A stretch of DNA of 64,000 nucleotides from Candidatus Omnitrophota bacterium (GCA_023247255.1 JAHFGV010000005.1:6067-70066); one strand, 5' to 3'; counted from the first letter of the stretch, positions 43,582-63,255 are shown. The notes: generated by a model from the letters alone, not told the origin. Made by a program: numbers and translations.

Positions 43582-43586
43582 CAGGC

Positions 43587-43760
43587 ATGTTTGGGAATAT
43601 TGGGTTTCCAGAGCTGTTGGTGATTTTGTCGATCGTGCTCCTCCTCTTTGGGGCCAAGCGGCTGCCGGAGATTGCGCGTGGCTTGGGGAAGTCGCTCTCT
43701 GAATTCAAGAAGGGACTGAAGGAGATCGAGCACGACGTCAACGATGTCAAGAAGGTCTGA
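43587..43760 (+). CDS. tatA: Twin-arginine translocase subunit TatA/E (57 aa, below the ORF-track cutoff)
   Basis: RBS gaaggagg. [37 protein letters not shown]. Confidence 0.8.
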
Positions 43761-43766
43761 GCGAAG

Positions 43767-45365
43767 GTGGCGGCTCCGGTCAACCGGCCGATGACGGAAG
43801 CGTTGAGGATGCGTCTCGGTATGCTGATTGCGGTGGTTGCGCTAGGCTCAGGGTGCGCCAAGGAGCCATCCGCAACACTCTCGAGCGCGAAACCGTCTGT
43901 GACCCCGCAGATCGTTGAAATGGGCCGGCGGCTTTACAACAAGCAGTGCGCGGTCTGTCATGGCCCGAAGGGCGCGGGCGACGGCCAGGCAGCTTACCTC
44001 CTCTATCCTAAGCCGCGCGATTTCACACAAAACGAATTCCGACTTGTCTCGACCAGCACGATGCAGGCCACCGATGAAGATCTGTTTCTCACCATTACCC
44101 GTGGGACGCCCGGCTCCGCGATGCCCTCCTGGGAGACGCTGACGTCGGAGCAGCGCTGGGCGTTGGTGTATTACGTTCGCCACCTCACGGGTGCGAGCGA
44201 ATCCATTGATCCAGCCTCAATCATCCACGTCCCTCCAGAGACGCCGAAGACCCCCGAGAGCATCGCGCGTGGCCGCCAAATTTTTGTCCAGGCGTGCGCG
44301 TCCTGCCATGGGCCACAAGGCCGCGGTGATGGGCAGCAGGTCATGGCGGACAACGCCGGATATCCTATCAAGCCACGCGATCTCACCGCAGGCGTCTTTA
44401 AGGGGTCGTCTGAGAGCAACGATTTGTATTACCGAATTGTCGCTGGATTGCCGGGCAGCCCGATGCCAAGTTACGCTGACGTCTACACCGACGAGCAGTT
44501 GTGGGATCTCATCCACTACGTTCAATCGCTCGTACCGTCGGGAGTCGAGGATCGCGTCCGCATGCATGCACGGAGCATCCGCGCCCATCGGGTCAGAGGC
44601 GACATCCCATTAGAACCGACAGCGAAAATCTGGAGCACGAGACAACCGGTCTCTATCGCCCTCACACCATTGTGGTGGCGCGATCACCGAGTCGAAGGGG
44701 TCGAGGTCAAAGCGTTGCACAACGGCAAAGAGCTCGCGCTTCAATTGTCATGGAACGACCAGACGCGTGACAACTCGACCCTCACCCCGCAGGCGTTTTC
44801 CGATGGTGTCGCGGTAGAATTCTCCTTAGAACAGGACCCGCCGTTCTTTGGGATGGGTGACGCAAACGGAGTCGTGCAGATATGGCACTGGAAAGCCTCC
44901 TGGCAGGAGGACCTCAAGGGCTGGCAGGACGTGGAGACCGCCTACCCCAATGCTGCCGTGGATTGGTATCCCGCACAGCGTGACTATCAGCACGGTGAAC
45001 CCTCCGAGGTGAGCCAGTCGAGGACGGCCTCGCAGGACCCACGGTTCATGGGCGGATGGGGAGCGGGCAATCCCCTCTCCGATCCGAATCGAACGTCAGC
45101 GGCTGAGGAAGCGATGGCCAAGGGATTGGGGACGCTGACCTCACGCGCACCTTCGATGCAACGGATCCAAGCGGATGGTCTCTGGCAAGACGGTCGGTGG
45201 CAGGTCGTGCTGCATCGACCGCTTGCGCCCAACGAGGAGGGGGATCTGAGGCTGAAGCCTGGGCAGCAAGTCAGCGCGGCGTTTGCGATCTGGGATGGCC
45301 ATGCCGGGGATCGCAACGGCCAAAAGAGCGTGTCGATTTGGAACATCTTGGAGCTGGAGCGATAG
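43767..45365 (+). CDS. Lipoprotein-type diheme cytochrome c fused to a Trp-rich EB_dh/DOMON-like domain; candidate gamma/electron-transfer subunit for the adjacent molybdoenzyme
   Basis: LGSGC lipobox. CAVCHGPKGAGDG and CASCHGPQGRGDG. Approximately 270-aa C-terminal beta-rich W-rich domain. Confidence 0.6.
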   Translation: MAAPVNRPMTEALRMRLGMLIAVVALGSGCAKEPSATLSSAKPSVTPQIVEMGRRLYNKQCAVCHGPKGAGDGQAAYLLYPKPRDFTQNEFRLVSTSTMQATDEDLFLTITRGTPGSAMPSWETLTSEQRWALVYYVRHLTGASESIDPASIIHVPPETPKTPESIARGRQIFVQACASCHGPQGRGDGQQVMADNAGYPIKPRDLTAGVFKGSSESNDLYYRIVAGLPGSPMPSYADVYTDEQLWDLIHYVQSLVPSGVEDRVRMHARSIRAHRVRGDIPLEPTAKIWSTRQPVSIALTPLWWRDHRVEGVEVKALHNGKELALQLSWNDQTRDNSTLTPQAFSDGVAVEFSLEQDPPFFGMGDANGVVQIWHWKASWQEDLKGWQDVETAYPNAAVDWYPAQRDYQHGEPSEVSQSRTASQDPRFMGGWGAGNPLSDPNRTSAAEEAMAKGLGTLTSRAPSMQRIQADGLWQDGRWQVVLHRPLAPNEEGDLRLKPGQQVSAAFAIWDGHAGDRNGQKSVSIWNILELER

Positions 45366-45366
45366 C

Positions 45367-48300
45367 CATGTATCTGACGCGTCGTCAGTTTTTAAAACTC
45401 TCAGGAGCTACTGGAATCGGGTTGTATCTCGCCTCACGCGAGGTCTCGCTCTGGGCGCTGGAGCCGGTGAGCGAGATAGAGAATCCGCTCGCCTACTATC
45501 CTTCGCGAGACTGGGAGAAGCTCTACCGCGACCAGTACCGGTATGACAGCACCTTCTCCTGGGTCTGCTCGCCCAACGACACGCACGCCTGCCGGGTCCT
45601 GGCGTACGTGAGAAACGGCGTCGTGGTGCGTCTTGGCTCAGAGTACAACTATGAAACCTACGCCGACCTGTACGGAAACAAGGCCACTCCCAACTGGAAC
45701 CCGCGCCAGTGCGCCAAAGGTTTCACCTTTCATCGGCTCATCTACGGTCCTTACCGCTTGAAACATCCCATCATCCGTAACGGTTGGAAGCGCTGGGCCG
45801 ACGACGGATTCCCAACGCTGACCCCTGAGAAAAAGACACAATACAAGTTTGACTCGCGCGGCACAGACACTTTTGAAAAAATCAGTTGGGAGGATATCTA
45901 CGGCTACATTGCCCGCGGCCTCATCGCTATCGCTACGCGCTACAGCGGCGAGCCGGGCATAACACTCCTGCGCGCACAGGGCTATCCCGAGGAAATGATC
46001 CAAGCGATGGGTGGGGCCGGGACACGGACCTTGAAGTTCCGCGGCGGGATGGGCCTGCTTGGGGTGTTTGGCAAGTACGGCATGTACCGACTGGCGAACA
46101 CGATGGCGCTTCTCGATGTCCACCTGCGCGGTGTCAAGCCTGAGGAGGCGAAGGCCGGACGGACGTGGTCCAACTACACGTGGCACGGCGATCAGGCGCC
46201 GGGGCATCCCTGGGTGCATGGATTGCAGAACGCCGACTGCGATTTCAACGACCTTCGTTTTTCCAAGCTGATCATCCAGGACGGCAAGAACCTCTGCGAG
46301 AACAAGATGACCGACTCGCACTGGTTCATTGAATGTATGGAGCGTGGGGCAAAGCTGGTGACGATCGCGCCCGAATACAGCCCGCCGGCGTCGAAGTCGG
46401 ACTATTGGATTCCGATTCGCCCGCAGACCGATGCCGCGCTCTTCTTGGGTATCACGCGCCTCATGATCGACCGAGGCTGGTACGACCGGGAGTTTATCCT
46501 GAACTTCACCGACTTTCCGCTCTTGGTGCGAACCGACACCCTGCGGCGCCTTCGAGCGAATGAGATCCTGCCGGGCTACCAAGGGCAGTTGTCCAAGGAC
46601 GGCCCAAGCTACAAGCTCCAGGGATTGAAGGACGAGCAGTATGCCAAGTTGGGGGACTTCGTCGTCTGGGATGAATCCTCCGGAGCGCCCGCCGCAATCA
46701 CACGCGACGACGTCGGCAAGCGTCTCGTACAGAAAGGCGTCCACCCCGCGCTTGAAGGGACGTTTACACTCAACACGGTGGATGGGAAGCGTATTGAGGT
46801 GATGACGCTCTTTTCGCTCTATCAACTCCACCTCAAGGACTACGACCTTGATACCGTGCATGAGATCACTCGCGCGCCGAGAGAGCAGATCGAACAACTC
46901 GCGAAGGACATCGCCACTATCTCGCCAGTCGCGATCCACCAAGGCGAGGGCATCAACCACTACTTCCACGCCACCGAGGCCAATCGCGCCGCCTATCTGC
47001 CGCTGATGCTGACCGGCAACATCGGCCAACGCGGTGCTGGCTGCTACGGATGGGCCGGCAACTACAAGGCTGCGCTTTTCCAAGGCTCTCCATGGACCGG
47101 TCCGGGATTCAAAGGCTGGGTGGCCGAGGATCCGTTTGAGCCTAACCTTGACCCCAACGCGCACGGGAAAGACATCCACGCGCACGCCTACTTCAAGGAC
47201 GAAGAGCCGGCTTATTGGAACCACGGGGATAAGCCGCTGATCGTCGAGACGCCCAAGGGCGGCCGCAAGGTCTTCACCGGCAACACTCACATGCCCACAC
47301 CCACAAAGGCGATGCTTTTCACCAACGTGAACCTCATCAACAATGCCAAGTGGGTCTATGAGATGCTCAAGAACGTCAACCCGAATGTCGAGATGATCCT
47401 TTCTATCGACATCCAAATGACCGCTTCGATCGAATACGCGGACTTAGCACTGCCGGCGAATAGCTGGCTTGAGTTCGAGGGGCTGGAGGTTACGGCGTCA
47501 TGCTCCAACCCTTTCCTCCAGATCTGGAAGGGCGGGATTCCGCCTGTGTTCGACAGCCGGGATGATCTGGTGATTCTCGCCCAGATCGCCGAAGCGCTCG
47601 GCAAGGAAATCGGCGATACGCGCTGCAGCGACTACTGGAAGTTTGCGCTCGAGGGCAAGCGCGAAGTCTACATCCAGCGGCTGCTGGATTCCTGCACGAC
47701 GACGGTTGGCTATCGTCTGGAGGACATCATGGCGGGCAAGTACGGGCCGCCGGGGGCGGCACTCATGCTCTTTCGCACCTATCCCCGGATCCCCTTCTGG
47801 GAGCAGGTGCACGAGGACTTACCTTTCTACACCGACCACGGGAGGCTTTCGGCCTACACCGATGTGCCCGAGGCGATCGAGTACGGCGAGAATTTCATCG
47901 TCCACCGTGAAGGTGCGGAGGCGACACCCTACCTGCCGAACGTCATCGTCAGCAGCAACCCGTACATCCGCCCCAACGATTACGGTATTCCCTTATCGGC
48001 GGAGCACTGGGATGACCGCACGGTGCGCAACGTGAAGATGCCGTGGGATCAGGTCAAAGGCACAAAGAATTTCCTCTGGGAAAAGGGCTTTCAGTTTTAC
48101 TGTCTAACTCCCAAGAGCCGCCATCGCGTCCACTCGCTTTGGAGCAACGTGGACTGGCACCAAATCTGGGACTCCAACTTCGGCGATCCCTACCGGATGG
48201 ACAAACGCAGCCCTGGTGTTGGCGAACACCAGGTTCACATGAATCCCCAGGCGGCAAAGGATTTAGGGATCAATGACGGCGATTACGCCTATGTCGATGC

Positions 48301-48820
48301 GAATCCAGCAGATCGTCCCTACATTGGGGCGAAACCTGACGATCCGTTCTATCGGGTGGCGCGGCTGATGCTGCGTGTCAAGTACAACGCAGCCTACCCG
48401 TACAACGTCGTCATGATGAAGCACGGGACCTATATTGCCACCGAGAAATCTGTGAAGGCCCACGAGACGCGCAAGGATGGACGGGCCCTCTCCGCTGACA
48501 CCGGCTACCAGGCGAACTTCCGCTACGGGTCGCAGCAGAGTGTCACGCGCAACTGGCACATGCCGATGCACCAGACCGACTCACTCTTCCACAAGGCGAA
48601 GGTCTTCATGGGCTTTCTCTTCGGCGGCGAGGCGGACAATCACGCGGTCAACACGGTTCCGAAAGAGACGCTGGTGCGCGTGACGAAAGCGGAAGACGGC
48701 GGGTTGGGTGGCCAGGGCGTGTGGGCTCCGGCGACGACCGGCTATACCCCGGCCAACGAGAACGACACGATGAAGAAGTACCTCGAAGGCCGGTTCGTTG
48801 AGGAGAGCAAGAAATGGTAA
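45367..48820 (+). CDS. Tat-exported NarG/NxrA-like molybdopterin oxidoreductase alpha subunit (type II DMSO-reductase family; about 1151 aa)
   Basis: ATG 45367 gives MYLTRRQFLKLSGATGIGL, a twin-arginine signal. N-terminal Cys/His FS0-type cluster region. Length and Tat signal fit periplasmic Nxr/Nar-like enzymes rather than cytoplasmic NarG. Confidence 0.8.
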
Positions 48821-49521
48821 ACGAGAGCCGCGCTTACCGCAATCGATGGAAATATCTATGTGCAGGGCTTACGAGCGTCATGCTCGTTCTAGGACTCACT
48901 CCAATGAGCTGGGCGAGGGATGATCTCCAGGTGTGGAATACCATCGAGCTCAGCAAGCGGCTCGGTCCACATTGGGAGGTGTTTTTCCTTCCGGAGATAC
49001 GGATACGCGATGATGCGGGCGAGTTCTTTTACCACGAGTACCGCCAGGGTGTGCGCTACAAGCCCTCCAAACACTGGCAACTCGGGCTCAATTACCTATT
49101 CGTTCGCAACGAGTCCTCCGGCAAACCGCTCGAGGAGCATACCGGCGAGCTCGACCTCACGCCTAAAACGACGCTAGGCCCCCTCGAGGTCTCTCTGCGA
49201 GGGCGGCTGGCGCTGCGGACCATTCAAGGCAGCACCGGCGAGCAGGAATGGCAGTTTCGAGTGATGCCGAAGGTCGCGTATCCGACCCAGTTCGTCGGTC
49301 ACAAGCTCATCCCCTACGCCGCCGATGATCTGTACTACGACTACACCCGCGACGCGTGGAACCAGAACCGGGTGTTCCTTGGTCTTGCCATCCCCATGGG
49401 CAAGGCGCTTGGCGCCGAGACGACGGTGGATGTCTACTACATGCTCCAGAGTCAACTCGGCAAACGGCACGACTGGAGCAGCAGCCACGTCCTGGGGACG
49501 AAACTGAGTGTCAGATTTTGA
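48814..49521 (+). CDS. Exported beta-rich protein (possible small outer-membrane barrel or heme-b gamma-like subunit), interposed between the alpha and beta genes
   Basis: Signal peptide. Alternating hydrophobic pattern. C-terminal ...LSVRF. Confidence 0.35.
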   Translation: MVNESRAYRNRWKYLCAGLTSVMLVLGLTPMSWARDDLQVWNTIELSKRLGPHWEVFFLPEIRIRDDAGEFFYHEYRQGVRYKPSKHWQLGLNYLFVRNESSGKPLEEHTGELDLTPKTTLGPLEVSLRGRLALRTIQGSTGEQEWQFRVMPKVAYPTQFVGHKLIPYAADDLYYDYTRDAWNQNRVFLGLAIPMGKALGAETTVDVYYMLQSQLGKRHDWSSSHVLGTKLSVRF

Positions 49522-49541
49522 CGAGATGAGGCGTGTGAGCG

Positions 49542-49818
49542 ATGCCGTATAAGGAACCCGAACCGGATGATCCTTTGGAGCTGACGGGAGTCGTCCTACC
49601 TGCTTCGGACGAGACGTCACTGAAGGAAATGGCCGTGTGTTTCGTCGAAGAGTTCCTGCGCGACGGCTGGTCGGATGAGCAGCTTCGTGCGATGTTCCGC
49701 AATCCCTACTACCGAGGTCCCTACCTCGTGTGGCGGCAGAAGGGCGATGCATACGTGGAGGCTGTGATCCAGGAAGTCCGTCACATCTGGCGCCCCAACG
49801 CAGCCGGAGGAGCGACTC

Positions 49819-49826
<8 letters not shown>
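49542..49826 (+). CDS. Small hypothetical protein (94 aa)
   Basis: Overlaps the beta subunit start. No recognisable motif. Confidence 0.3.
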
Positions 49827-51057
<1,231 letters not shown>

Positions 51058-51087
51058 ATTTTGCTGCGCAACATTTATTAACCGGAT

Positions 51088-51867
51088 ATGAATCCTACGA
51101 TAAATCTTCCTTCGGAAAATTTAATTGAGGACCTGCTGGCGAGAAGCGCCGTCTATCATGCGCTGTCGCTGCTGCTGCGCCATCCAGACGCGGCCGCCAT
51201 GAAGTGGCTGTCGATGCGGGAATATCAGCGGCTGGCTGAGGTCGTGGAGATGCTGACGAAGGAACGAAAGGGATCATTGCACGAGGCTGTGCGGTATATG
51301 ATGACGGCGTTCGAGGGGGTGTCGATTGCGGAGTGGACCCGCGACTATGAACGGATCTTCGGACACTCGGTCCAGAGCGCGGCGCCACCCTATGAACTGG
51401 AGTACGGCGAGGAGCACAGCCATCGGCAGCCGCAGGAGCTGGGCGATATCGCGGCATTCTATCGAGCGTTCGGCCTTCGCGTGGCCTTTGCCTCGCATGA
51501 GCGGATCGATCATATCGTCACGGAGTGCGACTTCATGCAGTACCTGCTCTATAAGCAAGCCTGTGCACTTGATGAGGGGAGCGAGGAGCGGGCGGATGTG
51601 TGCGAAACGGCAGCCCAGCAGTTCCTCGCTGATCACCTCGGTCGCTGGGGTCCGGCCTTTGCCCTAAGACTCTCGCGAGCGGCTGAGCAGAGAGTCTTGG
51701 GAGCGCTTGCCGATACGACCCTGGCATGGCTGGTGCAGGATTGCGAGCGTATGCAGGTGCCTACCGGATCACGCGACCTCCCGCTGCGACTGCCCAAGGA
51801 ACGGGATGAGGTGGGATGCGCAGCGTGCGCACCTCAGCAGCTAGGAAATACTGATGGCAAGCGTTGA
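51088..51867 (+). CDS. NarJ/TorD-family redox-enzyme maturation chaperone
   Basis: 259 aa. Position after beta. Acidic helical protein with the EYxRLF-type pattern (ERIFG). Confidence 0.55.
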   Translation: MNPTINLPSENLIEDLLARSAVYHALSLLLRHPDAAAMKWLSMREYQRLAEVVEMLTKERKGSLHEAVRYMMTAFEGVSIAEWTRDYERIFGHSVQSAAPPYELEYGEEHSHRQPQELGDIAAFYRAFGLRVAFASHERIDHIVTECDFMQYLLYKQACALDEGSEERADVCETAAQQFLADHLGRWGPAFALRLSRAAEQRVLGALADTTLAWLVQDCERMQVPTGSRDLPLRLPKERDEVGCAACAPQQLGNTDGKR

Positions 51868-52801
51868 TGTCCAGTTTGATCCAGCATTTGTGGAAGAGAC
51901 GGTTTTCCTTGAATTGAGGAACCGGGAAGCCCTCGGCAATTGCGCGATGGCGCAGGCGTTTCATGTACAGCGCAGCGCCCTCTATGACACCACGACCGCA
52001 ACAGGCGAGCGCGAGGCGCGATTTCAGCAGCTGGCAGCCCGCTATTTCCAGGAGCTTGGATTCTCCGAGCTCTTTGCGAAACGGTTCGAAGAGTTTCCGC
52101 TGATCGGAGCGCATGTTCCTGTTGCGCTGGTGCGACGCGCCTGGAGCCGCAAGGAAGAGCGCGTTGAGTTATACGTTCCCCCTACGCCCGGTGGGGGCTC
52201 AAGCCTCAAAGCTTTTCCGACGCTGTGGATCGGTTTTCAGGTCGCCCGGTGCTTAAATCGCGAGCAGCTCGTGGCGTTCCTGCGGCATGAGCTCATGCAC
52301 ATCTCTGATATGTTTGACCCGGCGTTCGGGTACCAACCGCATCCAGACTTCGGCGCGGAGTGTGAAACAGAAGAGGACCTAATCCGTAAGCGCTTCCGAT
52401 TGCTGTGGAACCTCGTTGTGGATGGGCGGATGCGCCGGAAGGGCTGGCCGGCCGTTGACCATGGAACGACACGTCTTCGGGAGTTTGAGCGGGCGTTTGC
52501 CTCCTGGGACCCGCAGCGCCGCGAGGCGGTGTGGCCGGATCTTGGCAACCGAGCATCCTGCACGCAACGTGAGCTCCTGGAACTGGCGAAGGACGAACGT
52601 CTCACCCGGATGCTGGGGCAAGGCGGCGTTCGCTGCCCCTTGTGCCATTTTCCGACGCGGGAGGGCGTGTGCGATTGGCGTGGCGAACGCGCGGCTGTTG
52701 CTGAAGCGATCCAAACGGATTACGCCTGGTGGGATCCGGTTCAGGGAGCATGCCGGCAGTGCTTCGAGTTGTATCGCGCAAGGCTACCGGTGATGGGATG
52801 A
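51854..52801 (+). CDS. Hypothetical protein with an HExxH motif and a C-terminal Cys4 zinc-ribbon
   Basis: LRHELMHISDMFDP. CPLCHF-x9-C...CRQC. Confidence 0.45.
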   Translation: MASVDVQFDPAFVEETVFLELRNREALGNCAMAQAFHVQRSALYDTTTATGEREARFQQLAARYFQELGFSELFAKRFEEFPLIGAHVPVALVRRAWSRKEERVELYVPPTPGGGSSLKAFPTLWIGFQVARCLNREQLVAFLRHELMHISDMFDPAFGYQPHPDFGAECETEEDLIRKRFRLLWNLVVDGRMRRKGWPAVDHGTTRLREFERAFASWDPQRREAVWPDLGNRASCTQRELLELAKDERLTRMLGQGGVRCPLCHFPTREGVCDWRGERAAVAEAIQTDYAWWDPVQGACRQCFELYRARLPVMG

Positions 52802-53172
52802 CGCGCGAAGACGCAAATGCGACGAACGGCGAAATCAATCGGCGCACGTTTCTCGCCTCGGCGCCTCGGCACCTGCTGGACGGGCTGAGAGCGCTGATGA
52901 GCGATCTCAGAGGGCTCTCGCCGCCTGTCTTGGATGACCAGGCATGGCCGCTTCCTCGAAAGGTGGCGATGCTGGATGTCTCGCGGTGTCTCGCGTGGGG
53001 AGGAGGGGGCTGTCAGGTGTGTTATCTCCGGTGTCCCCTGCGTGAGCGTGCGATGGTGTTTGAGGATGGCAAACCAACGGTGGTGGCTTCCATGTGCGAC
53101 GGCTGTGGTGTCTGTGTCGAGGCGTGCGAAGCCGTCAATGACCTTGGAGCGATGACGCGTGTGAGTGTATGA
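52799..53172 (+). CDS. Tat-signal ferredoxin-like protein with two [4Fe-4S] motifs (NapF/NapG-like accessory)
   Basis: NRRTFLAS twin-arginine. CLAWGGGGCQVCYLRCP and CDGCGVCVEAC. Confidence 0.55.
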
Positions 53173-53888
53173 CGCGCGTCAGGGTTCTTTGGGGTGTGAT
53201 CGCGTAGGGTACGTGGTGGGATGACAATTCGAAACGACGCTCCGAGTTCAGCGACCTAAGCTCGCGTGATGGCGGGGATGGTCCCTGAACCCCTGTCCCA
53301 CACGCAACGCCGCGTGTAGGACCGGGCCGGGAAGGAAACGACTCGGCCTCCTCGTGTTCGGAAAGGAGACGGCAGGCTGGAGTATCGTCAAGCCAGCTTC
53401 TCTTTCCACACGAGGAGCTGGCTTGTTTCGTCACTGAGGGACGGTACCCGATGCAGGAACAACGTGTGACGCTCTGGTGCAAGGTGTTGGGTCGGCTGGT
53501 TGAGGTGGTCATCGCCAGGAATCACCATGCCCAGCCACCAGTCCCAGGGGTCCCTGAAGGCTGGAAGGTAACGGAGTGTCTGGAGAAAGACACGCCGTGT
53601 TTTGGCAAGGGCTGTCCGTTCACTACGGATGGTGGAGAGTCCCCCTTTGGGGAGGCGGGCGAGCTGCCCGATCTCTCCTCTGAGTCGTTCGATCCGCTCG
53701 CTGAACCAGGGTCTGAGGGAAAGGGTAGTTGACCCCACCACCTGTCTGTCAAGGCAGCTCCGTTGTTCCACGCTGACAGGATGCCTTGATGGACGTGACA
53801 GGGAATCGGACACGATGTTTCGGTATACAGTAAAAAGATTAGTAGGCACGTCCAAGACCGCCGTCTGCGGTTCCAGCCAGGTGGTGCG

Positions 53889-54875
53889 GTGATGGGCGCA
53901 CTCTGCGATCGGTTTGGCCGTCGCATCGAGTACCTGCGCATCTCGGTGACGGATCGGTGTAACCTCCGCTGCATCTATTGCCTGCCGGCGTGCGGAATCA
54001 AGTGGCTGCCGCGCGAGGAGATCCTGCGGTTTGAGGAGATCCGGGAAATCGTTCGCGTTGGGATAGCCCTGGGACTCACCCATGTGCGGCTGACCGGCGG
54101 CGAGCCACTCATCCGCGAAGGCCTTGCCGAGCTCGTCCAGATGCTCGCGGCGATCCCACACCTCGAAGACCTCTCCTTGAGTACGAACGGGGTGTTGCTC
54201 TCGCGAGACGCGAGGACGCTTGCGCGCGCCGGCCTTCGGCGCGTCAACATCAGCCTCGACACGCTAAAGGCTGAGCGGTTTCATGCCATCACGCGCTTCG
54301 GCGCGGTGTCCGATGTCCAGGCGGGGATTGAAGCTGCCTTGGAAGTGGGGCTTGATCCGGTCAAGCTCAATGTCGTGGTCATGCGCGGAATCAACGACGA
54401 TGAACTCGTTGAACTGGGTCGCCTCACAATCGATCGACCACTCCATGTGCGCTTTATCGAGCTGATGCCCATCGGGGATTTCTTCTCACGGGAGCGCCTG
54501 GTGCCGTCCGAGGAAATCCTCGCGTGTCTGGGCGCGTTGGGTGAGCTGTGGCCGAGTAGTGGCCCAGGTGGTTGCGGCCCGGCGAGAACGTTTGCGTTGG
54601 ACAAAGCGCAGGGAACCATCGGCATCATCGGGGCGGTAACGCAGGCCTTCTGTGCGCAGTGCAATCGGCTTCGGCTGACGGCAACCGGCCAGTTGCGGCC
54701 GTGTCTTGATGATACCGCAGCGGTTGATCTCAAACCCGCGCTGCGCCCCGCGATTGATCCCGGGCGGCTCGCTGAGTTGGTGCAACAGGCCGTAGAAGCA
54801 AAACCAGAGCAGCACAGCATGGCGCAACGGGATGCGGGGACCCCCCGCTTCTGCATGGCGGGAGTCGGCGGATGA
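53889..54875 (+). CDS. moaA: GTP 3',8-cyclase MoaA
   Basis: CNLRCIYC radical-SAM motif. C-terminal CAQCNRLRLTATGQLRPC. Confidence 0.9.
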   Translation: MMGALCDRFGRRIEYLRISVTDRCNLRCIYCLPACGIKWLPREEILRFEEIREIVRVGIALGLTHVRLTGGEPLIREGLAELVQMLAAIPHLEDLSLSTNGVLLSRDARTLARAGLRRVNISLDTLKAERFHAITRFGAVSDVQAGIEAALEVGLDPVKLNVVVMRGINDDELVELGRLTIDRPLHVRFIELMPIGDFFSRERLVPSEEILACLGALGELWPSSGPGGCGPARTFALDKAQGTIGIIGAVTQAFCAQCNRLRLTATGQLRPCLDDTAAVDLKPALRPAIDPGRLAELVQQAVEAKPEQHSMAQRDAGTPRFCMAGVGG

Positions 54876-55348
54876 AGATGGTTTCGACGCAGCGTCGACA
54901 CAACGCGCAGGTGCGCATGGCGGATGTAAGCGCGAAGTCCCCAATCCTCCGGACGGCGGTGGCGCGGTGTGAACTGGTGATGAAGCCAAGGACGCTGGCG
55001 ACCATTAAGGCGGGCAAACTGCCAAAGGGCGATGTATGGCCGGTCGCCCAGGTCGCGGGGATTCTGGCGACGAAGCGAACGGCCGAGCTCATCCCCCTGT
55101 GCCATCCAATTTCAATCAACCATGTCACCTTGCGTCAGGAATTGAATGGGCGATGTGTGACAATTGAAGCTGAGGTCACCACGACGGCGCCCACAGGCCC
55201 GGAAATGGAAGCCCTGACGGCGGCGGCCGTCGCGGCGCTTACGGTCTACGACATGTGCAAAGTCATCGAACGGGGCATCGTGATTCGACAGCTGTATCTG
55301 GTGAGCAAGTCAGGTGGTAAGAGCGGCACGTGGAGGCGACATCAGTAA
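54872..55348 (+). CDS. moaC: Cyclic pyranopterin monophosphate synthase MoaC
   Basis: 158 aa. LIPLCHPI motif. Confidence 0.9.
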   Translation: MKMVSTQRRHNAQVRMADVSAKSPILRTAVARCELVMKPRTLATIKAGKLPKGDVWPVAQVAGILATKRTAELIPLCHPISINHVTLRQELNGRCVTIEAEVTTTAPTGPEMEALTAAAVAALTVYDMCKVIERGIVIRQLYLVSKSGGKSGTWRRHQ

Positions 55349-55584
55349 TGTGGTCACGCTGTTGGTGGGCGACCTGGGTGTCAGGGTTCTTCGGGATCGC
55401 CGGTGTCTTGCATGTGGCGAGGTTCTTCTTCCGCGTTCCCGTGCGGGTCGGGACGTATGATGTCCCGCTCAGGGTCAGCGTGCTGGTTGGCGTGGTGTTC
55501 GTCAGCATCTCAGCGGGGTTGCTCTGGATCGAGGTCCAGCGTGAGCGAACCAAGCGTCGCTCAGTGGGAGAACAGAAGGCGTAA
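55330..55584 (+). CDS. Possible small 2-TM membrane protein
   Basis: Two hydrophobic helices. No other support. Confidence 0.25.
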   Translation: MEATSVMWSRCWWATWVSGFFGIAGVLHVARFFFRVPVRVGTYDVPLRVSVLVGVVFVSISAGLLWIEVQRERTKRRSVGEQKA

Positions 55585-55585
55585 G

Positions 55586-56068
55586 ATGACGTGGGAGGTG
55601 GGGATTCTGACCGTCAGCGACACGCGCTCTCAAGGCATCCGGGCAGACACGGCGACAGCGCTCATCCGCCAACTCTTGGAGAAGGCCGGGTTTGCGGTGT
55701 GCGAGACCCTCCTGGTTCCAGATGATGTCCGGCAGATTCAAGAGCTGCTCATCGACTTCGCCGATCGGCGGAAGCTTCCACTCGTTATCACAACCGGGGG
55801 GACAGGCTTTGGGCCACGCGACGTGACCCCGGAGGCGACGTGTCGTGTGATCGAACGCGAGGTGCCGGGTTTGCCTGAAGCGATGCGAGTGGCCACGGCA
55901 GAACGAAATCCTCTAGCTTGGTTATCACGTGGCGTGGCGGGACTGCGAGGCCGCACCCTGATCGTCAATCTCCCAGGTAATCCCGATGGCGCAATGGAGT
56001 GCTTAGAGGCGCTCCTGCCGCTATTGCCGCATGCACTTGAGATGGTCAACGGATGCGCTCATGGGTGA
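55586..56068 (+). CDS. moaB: MoaB/MogA-family molybdopterin adenylyltransferase
   Basis: ITTGGTGFGPRDVTPEA motif. ATG 55586. Confidence 0.8.
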   Translation: MTWEVGILTVSDTRSQGIRADTATALIRQLLEKAGFAVCETLLVPDDVRQIQELLIDFADRRKLPLVITTGGTGFGPRDVTPEATCRVIEREVPGLPEAMRVATAERNPLAWLSRGVAGLRGRTLIVNLPGNPDGAMECLEALLPLLPHALEMVNGCAHG

Positions 56069-56705
56069 CCATCAGCACCACGCGCAGACCATTCGGCACT
56101 TTGGGCACCTGGCCGCCCACTACGACCATCGGCATCGGCACTATAACCAGGTGACCTTGAGCCGGGCGGTGGAAGCGCTAAAGCTCTCTCCGGCGGGATG
56201 TGTGCTCGACGTGGGGTGTGGGACCGGGGAGCTGATGCGGCTCGTGCAGAGTCACCATCCGCAGGCAACCCTCGTCGGGATCGGTGTGACGCCTGAGATG
56301 ATTGCGGTCACACGGGAGAAATTTCAGCACGTGCCTCGGGTGAGGTTGTGCCTCGCGGAAGCCGAGGCGCTGCCGTTTGCTGCGGAAAGTTTCGAGGCGG
56401 TCGTCTCCTGTAACATGTTGCATCATGTGCACGCGATCGACCAGTTGTTTCGCGAATGTGCGCGGGTCCTGCGACCCCAGGGTCAATTGGTCGTTGTCGA
56501 CTGGTCCCGGGACTTCTGGCACTGCCAGCTGGCCCACTACTGTCTCCGTCTTGTCAAGCGTAGCTACGTGAAGATGTACCGCGCGTCCGAACTCGTCAAG
56601 CTCGCTGCGCCGCTTGGCCTAGCCGTGGAGGATGTCAGCCGGTTCTTCGTGCCACCCTATTTCGGGATGATGCGGGTGGTGGCCACAAGGCAGGAGACGC
56701 CTTGA
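56061..56705 (+). CDS. Class I SAM-dependent methyltransferase
   Basis: VLDVGCGTGEL motif I. Confidence 0.7.
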   Translation: MGDHQHHAQTIRHFGHLAAHYDHRHRHYNQVTLSRAVEALKLSPAGCVLDVGCGTGELMRLVQSHHPQATLVGIGVTPEMIAVTREKFQHVPRVRLCLAEAEALPFAAESFEAVVSCNMLHHVHAIDQLFRECARVLRPQGQLVVVDWSRDFWHCQLAHYCLRLVKRSYVKMYRASELVKLAAPLGLAVEDVSRFFVPPYFGMMRVVATRQETP

Positions 56706-56706
56706 G

Positions 56707-57440
56707 ATGGACGGCCTGTGGTGGCTTGTCCCTGTGTTTTTTGTGATTGCCCTGGCATACGCTTCGGTGGGGCACGGGGGCGCATCGGGGTATCTGGCGG
56801 CGCTGTCGTTTTTCGCCTTCTGTCCGGATGAAATGGCCACGACGGCGCTCACGTTGAATCTCTTCGTAGCTGGCATAGCCCTGATGAGCTTTGCGCGGGC
56901 AGGCCATTTTGTCGGCCGACTCACGTGGCCGTTTGTCGTCGCGTCGGTCCCAGCCGCTTTTCTGGGAGGGCTCATCCCTGTGTCGGTTCGCTTCTATCAG
57001 GTGCTGCTCGCGATCGCCTTGGGCGTGGCGGCGGTCCGTCTTTCCCTGGATCTCCGTGGCCGAGAAGAGGGTCGTGTCGTGAGGCCCAGCTTGGCGCTCG
57101 CGTTGCCGACCGGCGGCGGAATCGGGTGGCTCTCGGGAGTAGTCGGCGTAGGAGGAGGGATTTTCCTGAGCCCCTTTCTGCTGTTATTGCGCTGGGCTAC
57201 CCCAAAGCAGACAGCCGCCGCTTCAGCCGCGTTCATCCTCATCAATTCAGCCGCCGGTCTTTGCGGGCGGTCAGATCCGGCCTTGAGTATGGAACCCTGT
57301 GGCCGTTGCTCGCAGCCGCCCTGATCGGTGGATGGGTTGGCGCACACCTGGGCGCGAACCATTTCTCTGGACAGATACTAAAACGGCTCCTGGCGGTCAT
57401 ACTTCTCATCGCAGCTGCCAAGTTGCTTATCAGCCAATGA
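56707..57440 (+). CDS. TauE/SafE-family (sulfite exporter-like) membrane protein, split by an apparent frameshift near 57255-57290
   Basis: Two overlapping ORFs (56707..57324 and 56925..57440) together reconstruct a TauE-like protein. Confidence 0.5.
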
Positions 57441-58690
57441 GCGCACACAGGACACAGGTTCACGTTTCGGCACCCCGCCTCACCCGTGTTGACGAAGCCA
57501 GACGCATCGTGCTGGCGCAGGCCACGACGCTTGGCCCAGAACGGGTGCGGTTGGAGGATGGCATCGGCCGGGTCCTTGCGCAAGACGTCATCGCCGAGGC
57601 GAGCTTACCTCCCTTTGACAACTCGGCGATGGATGGCTATACCGTTCGATCCGCCGATACGGCTGGTGCGTCACGAGAACAACCCGTGAGGCTGAAGCTT
57701 GTCGGTAAGGTGGCTGCTGGTCAGACGCTGGAACGTGAGGTCAACCGAGGCGAGGCGGCCAAGATCATGACCGGGGCGCCGCTTCCGATCGGGGCCGATA
57801 GCGTCGTGATGTTAGAAGAAGCGCGGTTCCGTGATGGGATCGTCGAGATCCGAAGTCCCGTGGCGCCTGGGAGCCACATCCGCAAAGTAGGTGAGGATAT
57901 CCCGGCGGGCAACAGCGTCCTCACGGCGGGGTCCCGGATTCGCCTCCAGCATCTCGGTCTGCTCGCTGGGTTGGGATATGCGACGCTTCCGGTCTATCGC
58001 TCGCCCACCGTCGTGGTCCTGGCGACCGGCAGCGAACTCGTGAACATCGACGAGCCACTGGCGCCAGGAAAGATCCGCAACTCCAACGGCTTGGTGCTGG
58101 CTGCCCTCCTGCGCCAGCTTGGGATCCAGCCCCTTGATCTGGGCACGGCGGTTGATGAACGAGTGCGCATCCAGCGAAAGCTCCAGGAAGCTGCCGCGTC
58201 TGACGTCATCCTGATTTCTGGAGGCGTGTCAGTTGGCGAACACGATCTCGTGAAGCGCATTCTGCGGGATCTGGGGATGGAGATATTCTTCTGGCGGGTC
58301 AACATGAAACCCGGAAAGCCGCTGCTCTTCGGGCGCTGGCGAGGCAAAGTGATATTTGGGTTGCCAGGCAATCCCATTTCCTGTGTGGTGTGTTTTCTGG
58401 AATTCATCAGTCCGTTTCTGAGAAAAGTGATGGGGGAACGGGACGTGGATCAGGGACGGGTTCACGCACGGCTCACTCAGTCGATCAGGAAGAAAGAGCC
58501 ACGTAGGCAACTCTTCACGGCGAAGCTCGAAGAGGATCAGGGCGGGCTTTCGGTGACGCCGACACCGCAGCAGGGCTCAGGGATGCTCAACAGCCTTGCG
58601 CAGGCGAATGCCTTCATCGTCGTTCCTGAGGAAACGATGCGACTTGAGGCCAGTGATCTCGTCGAAGTCCTACCACTGTGGGGTGACTGA
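57437..58690 (+). CDS. moeA: Molybdopterin molybdotransferase MoeA
   Basis: ATG 57437 (AATGA overlap). LPPFDNSAMDGY and GGVSVGEHD motifs. Confidence 0.85.
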   Translation: MSAHRTQVHVSAPRLTRVDEARRIVLAQATTLGPERVRLEDGIGRVLAQDVIAEASLPPFDNSAMDGYTVRSADTAGASREQPVRLKLVGKVAAGQTLEREVNRGEAAKIMTGAPLPIGADSVVMLEEARFRDGIVEIRSPVAPGSHIRKVGEDIPAGNSVLTAGSRIRLQHLGLLAGLGYATLPVYRSPTVVVLATGSELVNIDEPLAPGKIRNSNGLVLAALLRQLGIQPLDLGTAVDERVRIQRKLQEAAASDVILISGGVSVGEHDLVKRILRDLGMEIFFWRVNMKPGKPLLFGRWRGKVIFGLPGNPISCVVCFLEFISPFLRKVMGERDVDQGRVHARLTQSIRKKEPRRQLFTAKLEEDQGGLSVTPTPQQGSGMLNSLAQANAFIVVPEETMRLEASDLVEVLPLWGD

Positions 58691-59172
58691 TGGCGCTCGT
58701 GGTGAGTATCTATGGCCCGTCAGGCAGCGGTAAGACGACGCTGATCGAACGTTTGATCCCTCGGCTTGTGGCACGTGGCCTCAAGATCGGTGTGATCAAG
58801 CATACTCACCACGGCCTTACGGTGGATCCTCAAGGGAAGGATAGCTGGCGAATATGGCAGGCTGGCGCGCAGGCGGTGCTTCTGGCTGCGCCACAGGAAA
58901 TTCTACTGAGGCAGCGGAGTTCGGAACCTTCCTTTGGCAGCGCACTGGCACTGATGCCCGGTGATCTGGATTGCATTTTTGTCGAGGGGTTTGCAGGTGA
59001 CACCACAGCACCGCAAGCGAATGTGCAATTACGGCTGGCCGTTTCTCATGAGGGTGTGTGGCTCAACGGGAGGCAGCGATCTCGCGATGATCTTGCCGCT
59101 GTTGAAGAAGCCATCATTGAGTTGATGAAGGGTTCTACGGGTGCCGACCTGATCAGAATGATGCAGGGATGA
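58690..59172 (+). CDS. mobB: Molybdopterin-guanine dinucleotide biosynthesis adapter MobB
   Basis: P-loop GPSGSGKTTL. 160 aa. Confidence 0.8.
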   Translation: MALVVSIYGPSGSGKTTLIERLIPRLVARGLKIGVIKHTHHGLTVDPQGKDSWRIWQAGAQAVLLAAPQEILLRQRSSEPSFGSALALMPGDLDCIFVEGFAGDTTAPQANVQLRLAVSHEGVWLNGRQRSRDDLAAVEEAIIELMKGSTGADLIRMMQG

Positions 59173-59441
59173 CCGTTTCGAGCATAGCAGTCCAAATGTC
59201 CGTCCGAGTTCTGTCGTTTGCCCAGTTACGGGGGCTGTTTGGAGCCGACGAGCTGGTCGTGTCCCTGCCGGGTGGATCGACTGGTCGGGACGTGATGAGA
59301 TGGTTTGTCCAACGCAACCCTAAGGTGGAAGATTTGCTTTCGGTTTCGCGGCTGGCGGTCAACGGTGAGTACGTGTCGTTGGAGCAGGTATTGAAGGATC
59401 GGGATGAGGTCGTGATCATCCCTCCGGTGAGCGGAGGCTGA
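59169..59441 (+). CDS. moaD: Molybdopterin synthase sulfur carrier subunit MoaD
   Basis: 90 aa ending in the diglycine ...PPVSGG. Confidence 0.75.
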   Translation: MTVSSIAVQMSVRVLSFAQLRGLFGADELVVSLPGGSTGRDVMRWFVQRNPKVEDLLSVSRLAVNGEYVSLEQVLKDRDEVVIIPPVSGG

Positions 59442-59443
59442 CG

Positions 59444-59872
59444 ATGGCCTTTTTGACGCATGACCCCATTTCAGTGACCGAGTGGCACGACATTACTGTT
59501 GATCAGCGCAACGGTGCCTCTGTGGAGTTTCTGGGGATTGTGCGCGGACACGAGGGGAATCGAGCGATCGTCTATCTCGAGTATGAGGCGTATGAGCCGA
59601 TGGCAGAGCGGCTCATCGCCCAGTTTGTTAAGGAAGCTAAAACGCGCTGGCCTCTTCACCAGGTCTACGCGCGTCATCGCTTGGGCCGAGTGGATGTGGG
59701 AGAGATTGCCGTGCTGATCGGCGTCCAGGCGCCACACCGGGACCAAGTGTTTGAAGCGTGCCGCTTCCTCATCGACGCCATCAAACGTGATGCGCCGATC
59801 TGGAAGATAGCCTATGACGCAACCGGCGAAGTCGCCCAGGAATACCATGTCTACGAAGGCCGAAATCACTGA
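59444..59872 (+). CDS. moaE: Molybdopterin synthase catalytic subunit MoaE
   Basis: 142 aa. GIVRGHEGNRAIVYLEYEAYEPMA. Confidence 0.85.
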   Translation: MAFLTHDPISVTEWHDITVDQRNGASVEFLGIVRGHEGNRAIVYLEYEAYEPMAERLIAQFVKEAKTRWPLHQVYARHRLGRVDVGEIAVLIGVQAPHRDQVFEACRFLIDAIKRDAPIWKIAYDATGEVAQEYHVYEGRNH

Positions 59873-60644
59873 CACAATCGCACACCCAGCGCCTGCAACA
59901 TTAGCAGAAGATCGACTACTTTCAACTGAAGATCGTAAGCTCTCGATCCTTGGGCACCTCGAAGAACTCAGGCGGCGTCTGTGGGTCTGCCTGCTCGCCG
60001 TCGCTGGGGCGTCGGCGGTGAGCTTCACATGGGTCGGGCAACTCATCGAGTGGCTGAAACGGCCGGCTGGTGCGGCATTGCCAAAGCTGGCGTTCTTCAG
60101 CCCTCCTGAGGCGCTCCTCGCCTACATGAAGGTGGCTGTGACGGCGGGGCTGTTCCTTTGCATGCCGGTCGTGCTCTATGAGCTGTGGGCTTTTGTGAAA
60201 CCTGGCCTGAGCCGTCAGGAGGGCCGCTACGGCGTGGCGTTTGTCTGGTGGGGCAGCGTGCTCTTTCTGGCAGGTGGTGCCTTTGCCTATTGGGTACTCC
60301 TGCCTGTATCGCTGAAGTTCCTGCTCGGCTTTGGCGGGGGGACCCTTGAGCCGATCATCTCGATCAGCAAGTACCTGTCGTTCACCGTGGCGGTCATTCT
60401 GGCCTGTGGGATGGTGTTCCAGCTTCCGCTATTGATCTTCCTGCTGGCGAAACTGGATCTGGTGAAGCCGCGCACGCTCCGGAGCAAGTGGCGCCATGCC
60501 GTGGTGGCGATGGTGGTTGCCGCAGCCCTGCTGACGCCGACCACCGATGTTGCCACGATGCTGCTGCTGGTCGTGCCGATGCTCGCACTCTACGAAGTCT
60601 CAATCTGGATCGCGGGCGTTGCAACACCCAAAGGACGGATGTAA
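59847..60644 (+). CDS. tatC: Twin-arginine translocase subunit TatC
   Basis: ATG 59847. Six TM helices. HLEELRRRL N-terminus typical of TatC. Confidence 0.85.
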   Translation: MSTKAEITDTIAHPAPATLAEDRLLSTEDRKLSILGHLEELRRRLWVCLLAVAGASAVSFTWVGQLIEWLKRPAGAALPKLAFFSPPEALLAYMKVAVTAGLFLCMPVVLYELWAFVKPGLSRQEGRYGVAFVWWGSVLFLAGGAFAYWVLLPVSLKFLLGFGGGTLEPIISISKYLSFTVAVILACGMVFQLPLLIFLLAKLDLVKPRTLRSKWRHAVVAMVVAAALLTPTTDVATMLLLVVPMLALYEVSIWIAGVATPKGRM

Positions 60645-61435
60645 TGGCAGCCGGAGTGACTGGAATCATCCTGGCAGGGGGTGAGAGCCGGCGCATGGGC
60701 CGGAACAAAGCGTTCCTGCCGTGGGGAGACACCACGCTCATCGAACATCTGCTTGAGCGGCTTAAGCCCGTGACGGATGAGCTGATCGTGGCGGTGAAGG
60801 ATGCGCGGGCGTTCCGGAATCTCAAGGCGAGGGTCGTGGAGGATTGCGTGCCGGATGCGCATGCGCTCGGCGGGCTTTACACCGGTTTGCGGACGGCATC
60901 GCATGAGCTGTGCTTCGTGTGTGGATGCGACGCGCCGTTCGTCAGCCCAGGACTGGTGTCTGCGCTGGCCGGACTCAGTGACGGCCATGATCTTGTCATC
61001 CCTCGGAGCCCACGCGGACTCGAGCCGCTTCACGCAGTCTATGCACGCTCATCGTCGCTGCCGGCGATCGAATGGCAACTACGGCGGCAGGTGTGGGATC
61101 TGCTGGTTCTGGTCTCGCGGCTTCGCGTGCGCATCGTGGAAGGCGAGGCGCTTCGGCGGATCGATCCGGCGGGACGCTGCTTCGTGAACCTCAACACCGA
61201 GGCGGACTACGCGATGGCGGAGGCCGTGAGGGTCAGACTTGCGCGGCGCGGGCAAGCAGCGGATGAGAGGTCAGCAGCGCGATCCAGACGCGACGAGCCT
61301 CCCTGCACGCCAGGCGTTTGGCCGCAACCTGTTCCTTCAAGGTCAGCAGGGATGTTTGGGAAGCTTCGGAGAGGGTCTCGCGCAATCGGCGGTACTCCTT
61401 CTCCCAGCGTTCCCATTCGTACAGGGCGGCCTTGA
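60644..61435 (+). CDS. mobA: Molybdenum cofactor guanylyltransferase MobA; 3' end uncertain, no stop until 61435, last ~200 nt low-complexity
   Basis: GIILAGGESRRMGRNKAFLPW N-terminus. TAATG overlap with the tatC stop. Confidence 0.7.
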   Translation: MAAGVTGIILAGGESRRMGRNKAFLPWGDTTLIEHLLERLKPVTDELIVAVKDARAFRNLKARVVEDCVPDAHALGGLYTGLRTASHELCFVCGCDAPFVSPGLVSALAGLSDGHDLVIPRSPRGLEPLHAVYARSSSLPAIEWQLRRQVWDLLVLVSRLRVRIVEGEALRRIDPAGRCFVNLNTEADYAMAEAVRVRLARRGQAADERSAARSRRDEPPCTPGVWPQPVPSRSAGMFGKLRRGSRAIGGTPSPSVPIRTGRP

Positions 61436-62384: not shown

Positions 62385-62532
62385 CTCTCTGGGGCCTCCG
62401 GCTGTGGGCCTGATCGGCCGTGTGTTGCGCTTGATCCCACATGTTCTCTGGATCCGCGCATGTTGTCCATGATCGCGGTCATGGTCAGGGCCAACGGCGA
62501 TGGAGACAATCTTTCCGAGAGGAGGATCTTAC

Positions 62533-63255
62533 ATGCGTAGAAACGCTTTACTGGTCGTGGGGGTTGCGGTTGGGATGCTCGGTATCCAACCGGCGGATGC
62601 GGCGGAAGGAGAGGGTGTGGGAGGGACGATCGCCGGGCAGGTGCAGTTTGCAGGAACACCGCCGGCCCGCGCGCCGGTGAAGATGAGCGCGGATCCGACC
62701 TGCCAACAGAAACACGCAGAGCCGGTATTGTCAGAGGACGTTATCGTCAACGATAACGGAACGCTCCGCAACGTGTTCGTCTACGTCAAGGAGGGTCTGG
62801 CTGGATCATTTCCACCATCCACCACGCCCGTTGTGCTAGATCAAGATGGTTGCCGCTATCGACCGCGGGTGGTAGGCCTGCAGGTAAGCCAACCGCTGGA
62901 AATCCGCAATAGCGATTCGACGTTGCACAACGTGAACGCCAAACCCAGCACCAACAAGCCCTTCAACCTGGCTCAGCCGGTGCAAGGAATGAAAACCACC
63001 AAAACCTTCAGCTCTCCAGAAGTGATGGTGGAGTTCAGATGCAACGTCCATCCATGGATGCGGGCCTATGTCGGTGTGGTAGCGTACCCTTTCTTCGCGG
63101 TGTCGGATGAGACCGGCGCATTTGGTATCTCCGGCCTGCCGGCGGGGAGCTACACGCTCGAGGCCTGGCACGAGGTCTACGGCACGCAGTCCCAGACGGT
63201 CACGGTGGCGGCGGGCCAGAGTGCGTCTGTCACGTTTTCGTTTTCCGCCAACTAA
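62533..63255 (+). CDS. Exported cupredoxin-like protein (type-1 copper C-x2-H-x2-M motif) with a C-terminal carboxypeptidase-regulatory-like beta domain
   Basis: RBS aggagga. Signal peptide. CNVHPWM motif. Confidence 0.45.
   Translation: MRRNALLVVGVAVGMLGIQPADAAEGEGVGGTIAGQVQFAGTPPARAPVKMSADPTCQQKHAEPVLSEDVIVNDNGTLRNVFVYVKEGLAGSFPPSTTPVVLDQDGCRYRPRVVGLQVSQPLEIRNSDSTLHNVNAKPSTNKPFNLAQPVQGMKTTKTFSSPEVMVEFRCNVHPWMRAYVGVVAYPFFAVSDETGAFGISGLPAGSYTLEAWHEVYGTQSQTVTVAAGQSASVTFSFSAN

Follow-up and report, generated by a model that had tools for sequence, protein, structure and literature searches.

In a stretch of 64,000 nucleotides from a Candidatus Omnitrophota bacterium (GCA_023247255.1 JAHFGV010000005.1:6067-70066), referred to here as the window, the genes for molybdenum cofactor (Moco) biosynthesis, together with the gene for the twin-arginine translocation (Tat) component TatC, are most plausibly read as a single operon (53228-61435) that is gated by a Moco riboswitch and lies head-to-tail behind the operon (43309-53172) of a periplasmic enzyme of the nitrite oxidoreductase (NXR) type. 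According to this reading, to which a probability of about 0.78 is assigned, the operon is old and lineage-conserved in NXR-bearing genomes of the Omnitrophota type, and has most likely accreted beside the operon of its client enzyme and been inherited with the host, rather than representing a recent or self-contained mobile module. The original prediction, which was made from the sequence alone, had described these genes as a cofactor island wired to a molybdoenzyme operon and forming a self-sufficient, possibly transferable module; it had missed the riboswitch, which makes the island a separately gated unit. Since this riboswitch recurs in 12 related loci (L001, L002, L005, L006, L007, L010, L012, L013, L015, L016, L024, and L169), where it likewise separates the NXR block from the Moco genes, the island is interpreted as a feedback-gated operon appended to the operon of its client.

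The aptamer matches the Rfam family RF01055 over the entire model, from position 1 to position 135 of 135. A third hairpin (P3), whose equivalence is taken from the order of stems in the model, matches the model and adopts an extended stem in the predicted fold, assigning the element to the Moco type rather than the tungsten cofactor (Tuco) type according to the criterion of Regulski et al. In an alignment of 13 instances, the cores CUCCGAG, CCUAA, GGAAAC, GCCUCC, and GGAAAGGAG are conserved, and the stem closed by a GAAA tetraloop shows compensatory changes in five pairs; the covariation refers to this stem, as the variable stems are poorly aligned by MAFFT. The aptamer is followed by a hairpin of the intrinsic-terminator type, with a predicted free energy of -31.5 kcal/mol (z -4.2), the 3' arm of which alternatively pairs with the GCCUCCUCGUG segment of the aptamer in the minimum-free-energy fold of the whole leader. 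These predicted competing pairings correspond to the usual anti-terminator/terminator alternative of an OFF switch.

Two kinds of expression platform are associated with the riboswitch in this group. A terminator platform is present in six instances: the window, L002, L005, and L006 share a conserved hairpin, and L010 and L024 have terminators with a classical U tract. In six others (L001, L007, L012, L013, L015, and L016), the aptamer extends at its 3' end into the start of moaA. The tatC gene lies 3' of the riboswitch in the window, L006, L010, L013, and L024, and is the first gene past it in L010 and L024. Upstream, only 55 nucleotides separate the stop codon of the last NXR gene, which encodes a small ferredoxin-like protein, from the aptamer, and no terminator-like site was found in this gap, which makes it plausible that transcripts from the NXR promoter read through into the leader; a TGACAAT box conserved immediately 5' of the aptamer could serve as a local -10 element. 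Another Moco riboswitch was observed in the related locus L011 (16681-20888), ahead of genes for a protein of 368 residues without assigned function, a second molybdopterin oxidoreductase (737 residues), and the Fe-S subunit of the latter, with no Moco genes there; its position before this oxidoreductase indicates that the same RNA serves a client enzyme in this group.

The arrangement was compared across 80 related loci, which were obtained from a genome scan with NxrB and onto which the proteins of the window were mapped by tblastn, and across one additional locus, the close relative L169, on a contig of more than 200 kb. The full order, nxrC-A-orf94-B-D-orf315-ferredoxin followed by moaA-moaC-mog-TauE-moeA-(mobB)-moaD-moaE-(tatC)-mobA, is found in 11 loci (L001, L002, L005, L006, L007, L010, L012, L014, L015, L024, and L169), all of which are either labelled Omnitrophota or grouped with Omnitrophota by NxrA and NxrB identity. 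The linkage of Moco genes to an NXR-type operon, as proposed earlier, is thus borne out by synteny, with the order NXR-riboswitch-Moco in 11 related loci of the Omnitrophota type. Among the 49 loci with at least 8 kb of sequence past nxrB, 10 carry at least five Moco genes, 4 carry moaA only, 9 carry mobB only, and 26 carry none. Identities of NXR and Moco proteins separate the relatives into the same two groups, at 83-90% versus 78-82% for NxrA and 69-77% versus 35-42% for MoaA. Genes upstream of the NXR block are also shared with L002, including feoB (81%) and DtxR/FeoA (70%). In L002 and L005, a gene for a class-V aminotransferase (cysteine desulfurase) follows mobA; it is not present in the window. 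A metagenome scan with a MoaA alignment, which contains generic MoaA motifs and is used as background only, listed matches of at most 52% identity, and among the matches listed the Moco genes occur in small, varied sub-operons, none of which shows the order of eight genes plus TauE.

The NXR core (nxrC-A-orf94-B-D-orf315) is distributed far more widely, at 65-90% identity, in genomes labelled Omnitrophota, Acidobacteriota, Binatia, Methylomirabilota, Planctomycetota, and Syntrophobacteraceae. None of approximately 30 loci from other phyla that have this core (NxrA 65-78%) and at least 8 kb of downstream sequence contains the Moco island; they carry mobB only or nothing. A minimal link to Moco genes was observed in six loci labelled Binatia or Syntrophobacteraceae (L029, L030, L035, L038, L039, and L048), where mobB alone lies approximately 1.5 kb past orf315.

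Several observations weigh against a conserved, riboswitch-gated operon. Five loci of the Omnitrophota type (L009, L011, L017, L018, and L025) lack Moco genes within 8-10 kb, and two others (L013 and L016) retain only riboswitch-moaA-MOSC accompanied by mobA-like or tatC genes. The NXR and Moco block of L010 and L012 exceeds its flanks by 4-9 GC points, possibly as a trace of an earlier transfer of the entire block. As for the leader in the window itself, the U tract after the terminator stem (UUUCGU) is short and weak, and an insert of 450 nucleotides carrying the small open reading frame (ORF) orf93 parts the terminator from moaA, unlike the situation in L002, L005, and L006. The logic of an OFF switch and the read-through from NXR are, moreover, inferred from predicted structures, and the broken frame of the TauE-like permease gene within the operon undoes its translational coupling to moeA.

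In the proposed mechanism, the NXR operon would provide the client NxrA with its twin-arginine signal, the chaperone NxrD, and TatA, and transcripts entering the spacer between the two operons would originate in the NXR operon, at a local promoter, or at both. As long as apo-NxrA consumes free Moco and keeps it low, the 3' part of the aptamer would pair with the terminator arm and the operon would be read. MoaA and MoaC would then convert GTP to cyclic pyranopterin monophosphate, MoaD and MoaE would convert the latter to molybdopterin (MPT), Mog would form MPT-AMP, MoeA would insert molybdenum, and MobA with MobB would form the bis-molybdopterin guanine dinucleotide cofactor (bis-MGD). NxrD would load bis-MGD into apo-NxrA, after which TatA and TatC would export the folded NxrAB via the NxrA signal peptide. 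In the presence of surplus Moco, the aptamer would close and the terminator would form, lowering both cofactor synthesis and TatC expression.

The features of the two operons and the spacer, as identified by scanning the ORFs of the window with Pfam and NCBIfam profiles, are collected in Table 1. All eight Moco genes of the earlier description (moaA, moaC, moaB/mog, moeA, mobB, moaD, moaE, and mobA) were identified as contiguous on the + strand between 53889 and 61435, together with the interleaved tatC, methyltransferase, frameshifted permease, and small membrane protein genes, and tatA was recovered at the front of the NXR block. The island was further said to follow the NXR genes directly, but the two are separated by a spacer of 717 nucleotides (53173-53888) containing the Moco riboswitch, the terminator, and the ORF of 93 residues. 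From moaA to mobA, neighbouring genes either overlap by 1-59 nucleotides or are at most 3 nucleotides apart, and the series therefore reads as a single operon. The C-terminal tail of MobA, comprising approximately 60 residues of low complexity, overlaps the 3' end of a convergent fatty-acid desaturase gene by approximately 200 nucleotides (61233-61435) and is probably non-functional read-through; a vestigial tatA in this tail, considered on account of an MFGKL... segment, was rejected, as no hydrophobic stretch follows it.

Table 1. Features of the NXR-type operon, the spacer, and the Moco/TatC operon in the window.
Feature	Position	Strand	Evidence and remarks
XRE/HTH_31-type regulator	43309-43581	+	Pfam; directly 5' of tatA; conserved in L002, L005, L006
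tatA, 57 residues	43587-43760	+	PF02416 on the called gene
nxrC-like gamma subunit	43767-45365	+	two cytochrome c domains fused to an EB_dh haem-b domain; PDB 7b04_C, 6h5l_B
nxrA-like bis-MGD catalytic subunit, 1150 residues	45368-48820	+	Tat signal TRRQFLK
DUF2490 gene with signal peptide	48814-49521	+	Pfam; between nxrA and orf94; overlaps the nxrA stop
orf94, 94 residues	49542-49826	+	between nxrA and nxrB
nxrB-like Fe-S subunit	49819-51057	+	Pfam, NCBIfam
nxrD, NarJ/TorD-type chaperone (type II dimethyl sulfoxide (DMSO) reductase family)	51088-51867	+	Pfam, NCBIfam
orf315, conserved cytoplasmic protein, 315 residues	51854-52801	+	HExxH-like motif; invariant 4-Cys ribbon
small 4Fe-4S ferredoxin-like protein	52798-53172	+	Pfam, NCBIfam; NRRTFL twin-arginine motif; last gene of the NXR block
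Moco riboswitch aptamer RF01055	53228-53385	+	Rfam 61.6 bits against a gathering score of 36, E 2e-12
intrinsic-terminator-type hairpin	53389-53431	+	14-bp stem, U tract UUUCGU
orf93, small Cys-motif protein	53451-53732	+	first ORF past the riboswitch
moaA	53889-54875	+	Pfam: Radical_SAM + Mob_synth_C; motif CNLRCIYC; C-terminal GG
moaC	54872-55348	+	Pfam
membrane ORF, 78 residues	55348-55584	+	two hydrophobic helices
mog/moaB (molybdopterin adenylyltransferase type)	55586-56068	+	Pfam, NCBIfam; true start 55586
class I S-adenosylmethionine (SAM) methyltransferase (UbiE-like)	56061-56705, alternative start 56031	+	Pfam, NCBIfam
TauE/SafE (TSUP) family permease, frameshifted	56707-57440	+	Pfam PF01925, 78 bits
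moeA	57437-58690	+	Pfam
mobB	58690-59172	+	Pfam; Walker A GPSGSGKT
moaD	59169-59441	+	Pfam; ThiS fold; ends ...VSGG (C-terminal GG)
moaE	59444-59872	+	Pfam
tatC	59814-60644	+	PF00902, 217.9 bits
mobA	60644-61435	+	Pfam, NCBIfam; true start 60644

The set for the bis-MGD pathway is complete with respect to MoaA, MoaC, MoaD, MoaE, Mog/MoaB, MoeA, MobA, and MobB. The claim of self-sufficiency, by contrast, is not supported. Among the ORFs of at least 150 residues scanned in the window, neither a MoeB/ThiF-type adenylyltransferase for MoaD nor a cysteine desulfurase as sulfur donor was found, and the window holds no modABC genes for molybdate uptake, the sole candidate for this function being the frameshifted TauE-like permease. 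Of the Tat translocase, the window encodes TatA and TatC. Twin-arginine motifs are carried not only by NxrA but also by a Rieske protein (SRRVFL) and by the small ferredoxin, so TatC is not dedicated to NXR, and the notion of an export function packed with one enzyme is not upheld.

Of the alternatives to be considered, the one that survives best regards the island as a second, dedicated set of pathway genes serving NXR only, with a housekeeping set located elsewhere in the genome. There is a parallel in perchlorate reducers, in which the moaA of the perchlorate reduction island coexists with a chromosomal copy (PMC4623255); in L013 and L016, furthermore, only moaA, MOSC, and mobA-like genes stand beside NXR, so the remainder of the pathway must lie elsewhere, and the second molybdoenzyme of L011 behind its own Moco riboswitch implies that more than one Moco client is possible in the group. 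The window, on the other hand, contains no second Moco gene and no further molybdoenzyme, the island holds functions of a single-copy type (tatC, moaD/E, and moeA), and the missing moeB makes the island dependent on the remaining genome rather than a duplicate of it. A second copy is considered possible but distinctly the less favoured option, and we lean towards the island being the only Moco locus of the genome.

It is improbable that the NXR, Moco, and Tat genes make up a self-sufficient module transferred as a whole from genome to genome, as had been envisaged originally. This scenario draws on the occurrence of the NXR core in many phyla at the identities given above, on the accepted horizontal transfer of NXR (PMC11009272), on flanks of the NXR-Moco block that vary between relatives, on the raised GC content of the block in L010 and L012, and on the precedent of moaA in the perchlorate reduction island, which accompanies a type II DMSO reductase (PMC4623255). 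Nevertheless, the island is absent from all of the approximately 30 loci from other phyla described above, and its composition is not deviant within the window. The GC content at third codon positions is 0.695 for the island versus 0.655-0.738 in the other gene groups of the window, its synonymous-codon distances (0.49-0.61) fall inside the spread among these groups, and its tetranucleotide profile correlates with those of neighbouring segments at r 0.90-0.94; codon usage and GC content thus give no signal for the island within the window. Across relatives, the GC content of the NXR and Moco block tracks that of the host from 0.45 to 0.66, which amounts to amelioration over a span of 20 points. 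No integrase, transposase, or conjugation genes and no transfer RNA genes or att-like repeats were detected at the borders of the block, the nearest transposase (21135-22136) being 21 kb upstream and the tRNA genes starting at 19140 and 23769, and the search for flanking repeats returned only short imperfect pairs at chance level. One att-like pair, D2 (43582 and 61347, 19 of 23 positions identical), which sits at the ends of the block, was rejected as no better than 14 other families at chance level. The lack of moeB, a sulfur donor, and modABC in the window, and the probable service of TatA and TatC to the Rieske protein as well, also speak against such a module. What demonstrably crosses phyla is the NXR core and not NXR together with Moco, which helps to define the moving unit as nxrC-A-orf94-B-D-orf315, to the exclusion of the cofactor genes.

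The remaining alternative, in which the island would merely continue the NXR operon to its 3' end and the riboswitch match would be without regulatory function, could appeal to the location of all genes on one strand and to the short terminator-free gap before the aptamer, yet it is most improbable in view of an RF01055 score 25 bits over the curated cut-off, 13 instances at the same position with conserved cores and compensatory changes, and the presence of two standard kinds of expression platform.

Judged from its sequence, the enzyme encoded upstream is a periplasmic bis-MGD enzyme of the NXR type within the type II DMSO reductase family, the reaction direction (nitrite oxidation or nitrate reduction) not being fixed by sequence. 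NxrA matches the NxrA of Kuenenia (PDB 7B04_B) over its full length (residues 1-1145, 1848 bits), which agrees with the earlier proposal that the guanylylation genes mobA and mobB fit a bis-MGD enzyme. The likeness to anammox-type NXR (Kuenenia PDB 7B04; NxrABC plus NxrD operons, PMC11009272) extends to NxrC (7B04_C), NxrB, the NarJ/TorD-type NxrD, and the Tat signal of NxrA, whereas the system described here differs in the fusion of NxrC to a dihaem cytochrome c, in the DUF2490 gene after nxrA, and in the appended Moco/TatC operon. The DUF2490 insertion occurs in none of the 80 related NXR loci, nor in L169, and is therefore specific to this genome.

Two proteins of the NXR core have no assigned role. 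The first, orf94, is kept between nxrA and nxrB in nearly all of the 80 loci across phyla, at 30-80% identity, and has no match in Pfam or the Protein Data Bank (PDB); it represents an unannotated constant of periplasmic NXR clusters. The second, orf315, bears the motif LRHELMHxxDMxDP and four invariant cysteines, and is placed after NxrD in most phyla and before nxrA in anammox-like loci. Its AlphaFold model has a pLDDT (predicted local distance difference test) of 92.5, and Foldseek returned no match in the PDB (best E 0.47; faintly zincin-like); it may be an unrecognised maturation factor of NXR.

Further proteins recur in the vicinity of NXR clusters. A CarboxypepD_reg-like domain protein, encoded at 62500-63255 in the window and without a sequence match in the PDB, is found directly after the ferredoxin in L007, L008, L011, L019, L021, and L024, and upstream in L005 and in loci labelled Planctomycetia; it may represent an additional periplasmic protein associated with NXR. 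A hint of a nitrogen-oxide context is provided by a ferredoxin-type nitrite/sulfite reductase (NIR_SIR) next to the island in L001 (18627-20444, - strand) and L169 (15761-17608, + strand), and by a multicopper oxidase in L006 (20756-21262).

Among the accessory genes of the Moco operon, the TauE-like permease is of possible relevance to metal supply. Its reading frame breaks at approximately 57270, with a stop of the first frame at 57324. The last 50 residues are encoded in a different frame that reaches 57440, and they can be aligned with intact orthologues of 245-251 residues; the stop of the original frame overlaps the ATG of moeA. An independent assembly, L081, which elsewhere differs from the window by 10 single-nucleotide polymorphisms and 1 indel, carries the identical frameshift, and for this reason the frameshift is probably genuine rather than an assembly error. 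The permease lies within the riboswitch-controlled operon in at least 10 loci. In the Armatimonadota metagenome-assembled genome L163 (2599-14211), a homologue with 60% identity is found in the series mobA-moaA-moaC/mog-moeA-MOSC-TauE, followed by an NAD-type formate dehydrogenase, MOSC, and FdhD, in a cluster that is independent of the NXR-Moco loci.

Precedents for oxyanion transport exist in this family, as the protein TK06_RS10770 of P. fluorescens has been linked to sulfate uptake (PMC11535334) and the rice protein OsDISMO1 to molybdenum transport (PMC12227400). The window protein shares the Pfam TauE domain with these TSUP permeases, which offers family precedent for tetrahedral oxyanions including molybdenum species; it differs from them in that the window copy is frameshifted, and the comparison is one of family domain and not of direct sequence alignment. 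It may tentatively be suggested that in NXR-bearing Omnitrophota the TauE permease, possibly with the ORF encoding two transmembrane helices, is a putative non-ABC molybdate importer replacing ModABC, and that TatC dosage is tuned by free Moco, so that one demand-sensing RNA would set cofactor supply, metal uptake, and export capacity. We consider this extension rather doubtful; the importer role is countered by the fact that, of seven TauE homologues sampled outside Omnitrophota, six lack a Moco context and all lack a riboswitch, and by the state of the gene in this genome, where it is a pseudogene.

As regards the smaller accessory genes, the membrane ORF of 78 residues has conserved counterparts in L005 (at the same position, 83% identity), L002 (60%), and L169. 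Apart from the window, only L005 and L006 have the SAM methyltransferase gene in this place. The protein encoded by orf93 carries the motif CL(D/E)KDxxCFGxxCxFTTDxGExP, and its sole homologue among the loci is in L005 (18967-19113), after mobA and directly before the class-V aminotransferase (cysteine desulfurase) gene.

Comparison with known systems places these observations within established designs. Moco riboswitches with a P3 stem are known to repress moa operons through platforms that occlude the ribosome-binding site or terminate transcription (Regulski et al. 2008, PMC2408646). The leader described here resembles that of E. coli moaABCDE and other RF01055 regulons (PMC2408646) in its P1-P5 architecture, the GAAA-tetraloop stem, the optional P3, and the location 5' of moaA, and in that both platforms, those occluding the ribosome-binding site and those acting as terminators, occur in this group, with a predicted OFF switch. 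It differs in that one leader gates the whole bis-MGD pathway plus tatC, the TauE permease, the methyltransferase, and small ORFs, in that the unit is immediately 3' of its client operon, and in that the carrier is an uncultured lineage of the Omnitrophota type. The placement of cofactor genes beside a respiratory molybdoenzyme is a known general design, exemplified by moaA of the perchlorate reduction island (PMC4623255), which likewise combines a respiratory enzyme of the type II DMSO reductase family with a Moco gene of its own; that island, however, has moaA only, a chromosomal copy in addition, and clear signatures of mobility, whereas the full pathway is present here and no mobility signature was found.

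If the proposed reading is true, it describes a compact, demand-driven logistics of the cofactor, in which an RNA sensor ties the synthesis of the cofactor to the production of the enzyme and, in several genomes, does the same for TatC, and it outlines a coherent maturation route for an NXR-type enzyme in uncultured Omnitrophota. The TauE-like permease constitutes a practical lead as a candidate for a new family of bacterial molybdate permeases. Current understanding is not overturned by any of these findings.

In the wider window, all genes from position 1 to 43300 are on the + strand and related to energy metabolism, comprising pyrD/F/E, nuoJ/L/M/N, the ATP synthase operon, hemA, multihaem cytochromes, a Rieske/cytochrome b complex, ResB/CcsA, feoB, and DtxR, so that the NXR-Moco block closes a respiratory supercluster of approximately 60 kb. 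The transposase mentioned above is of the DDE type and lies between the tRNA genes at 19140-19213 and 23769-23842. In its tetranucleotide profile, the initial 24 kb of the window departs somewhat from what follows; the genes of that part encode membrane proteins (nuo, atp). Relative to L081, a one-base indel at 35904 leaves the fusion of a multihaem cytochrome and cytochrome b561 (gene 34628-35944) at 438 residues in the window versus 518 residues, reflecting either strain variation or an assembly error.

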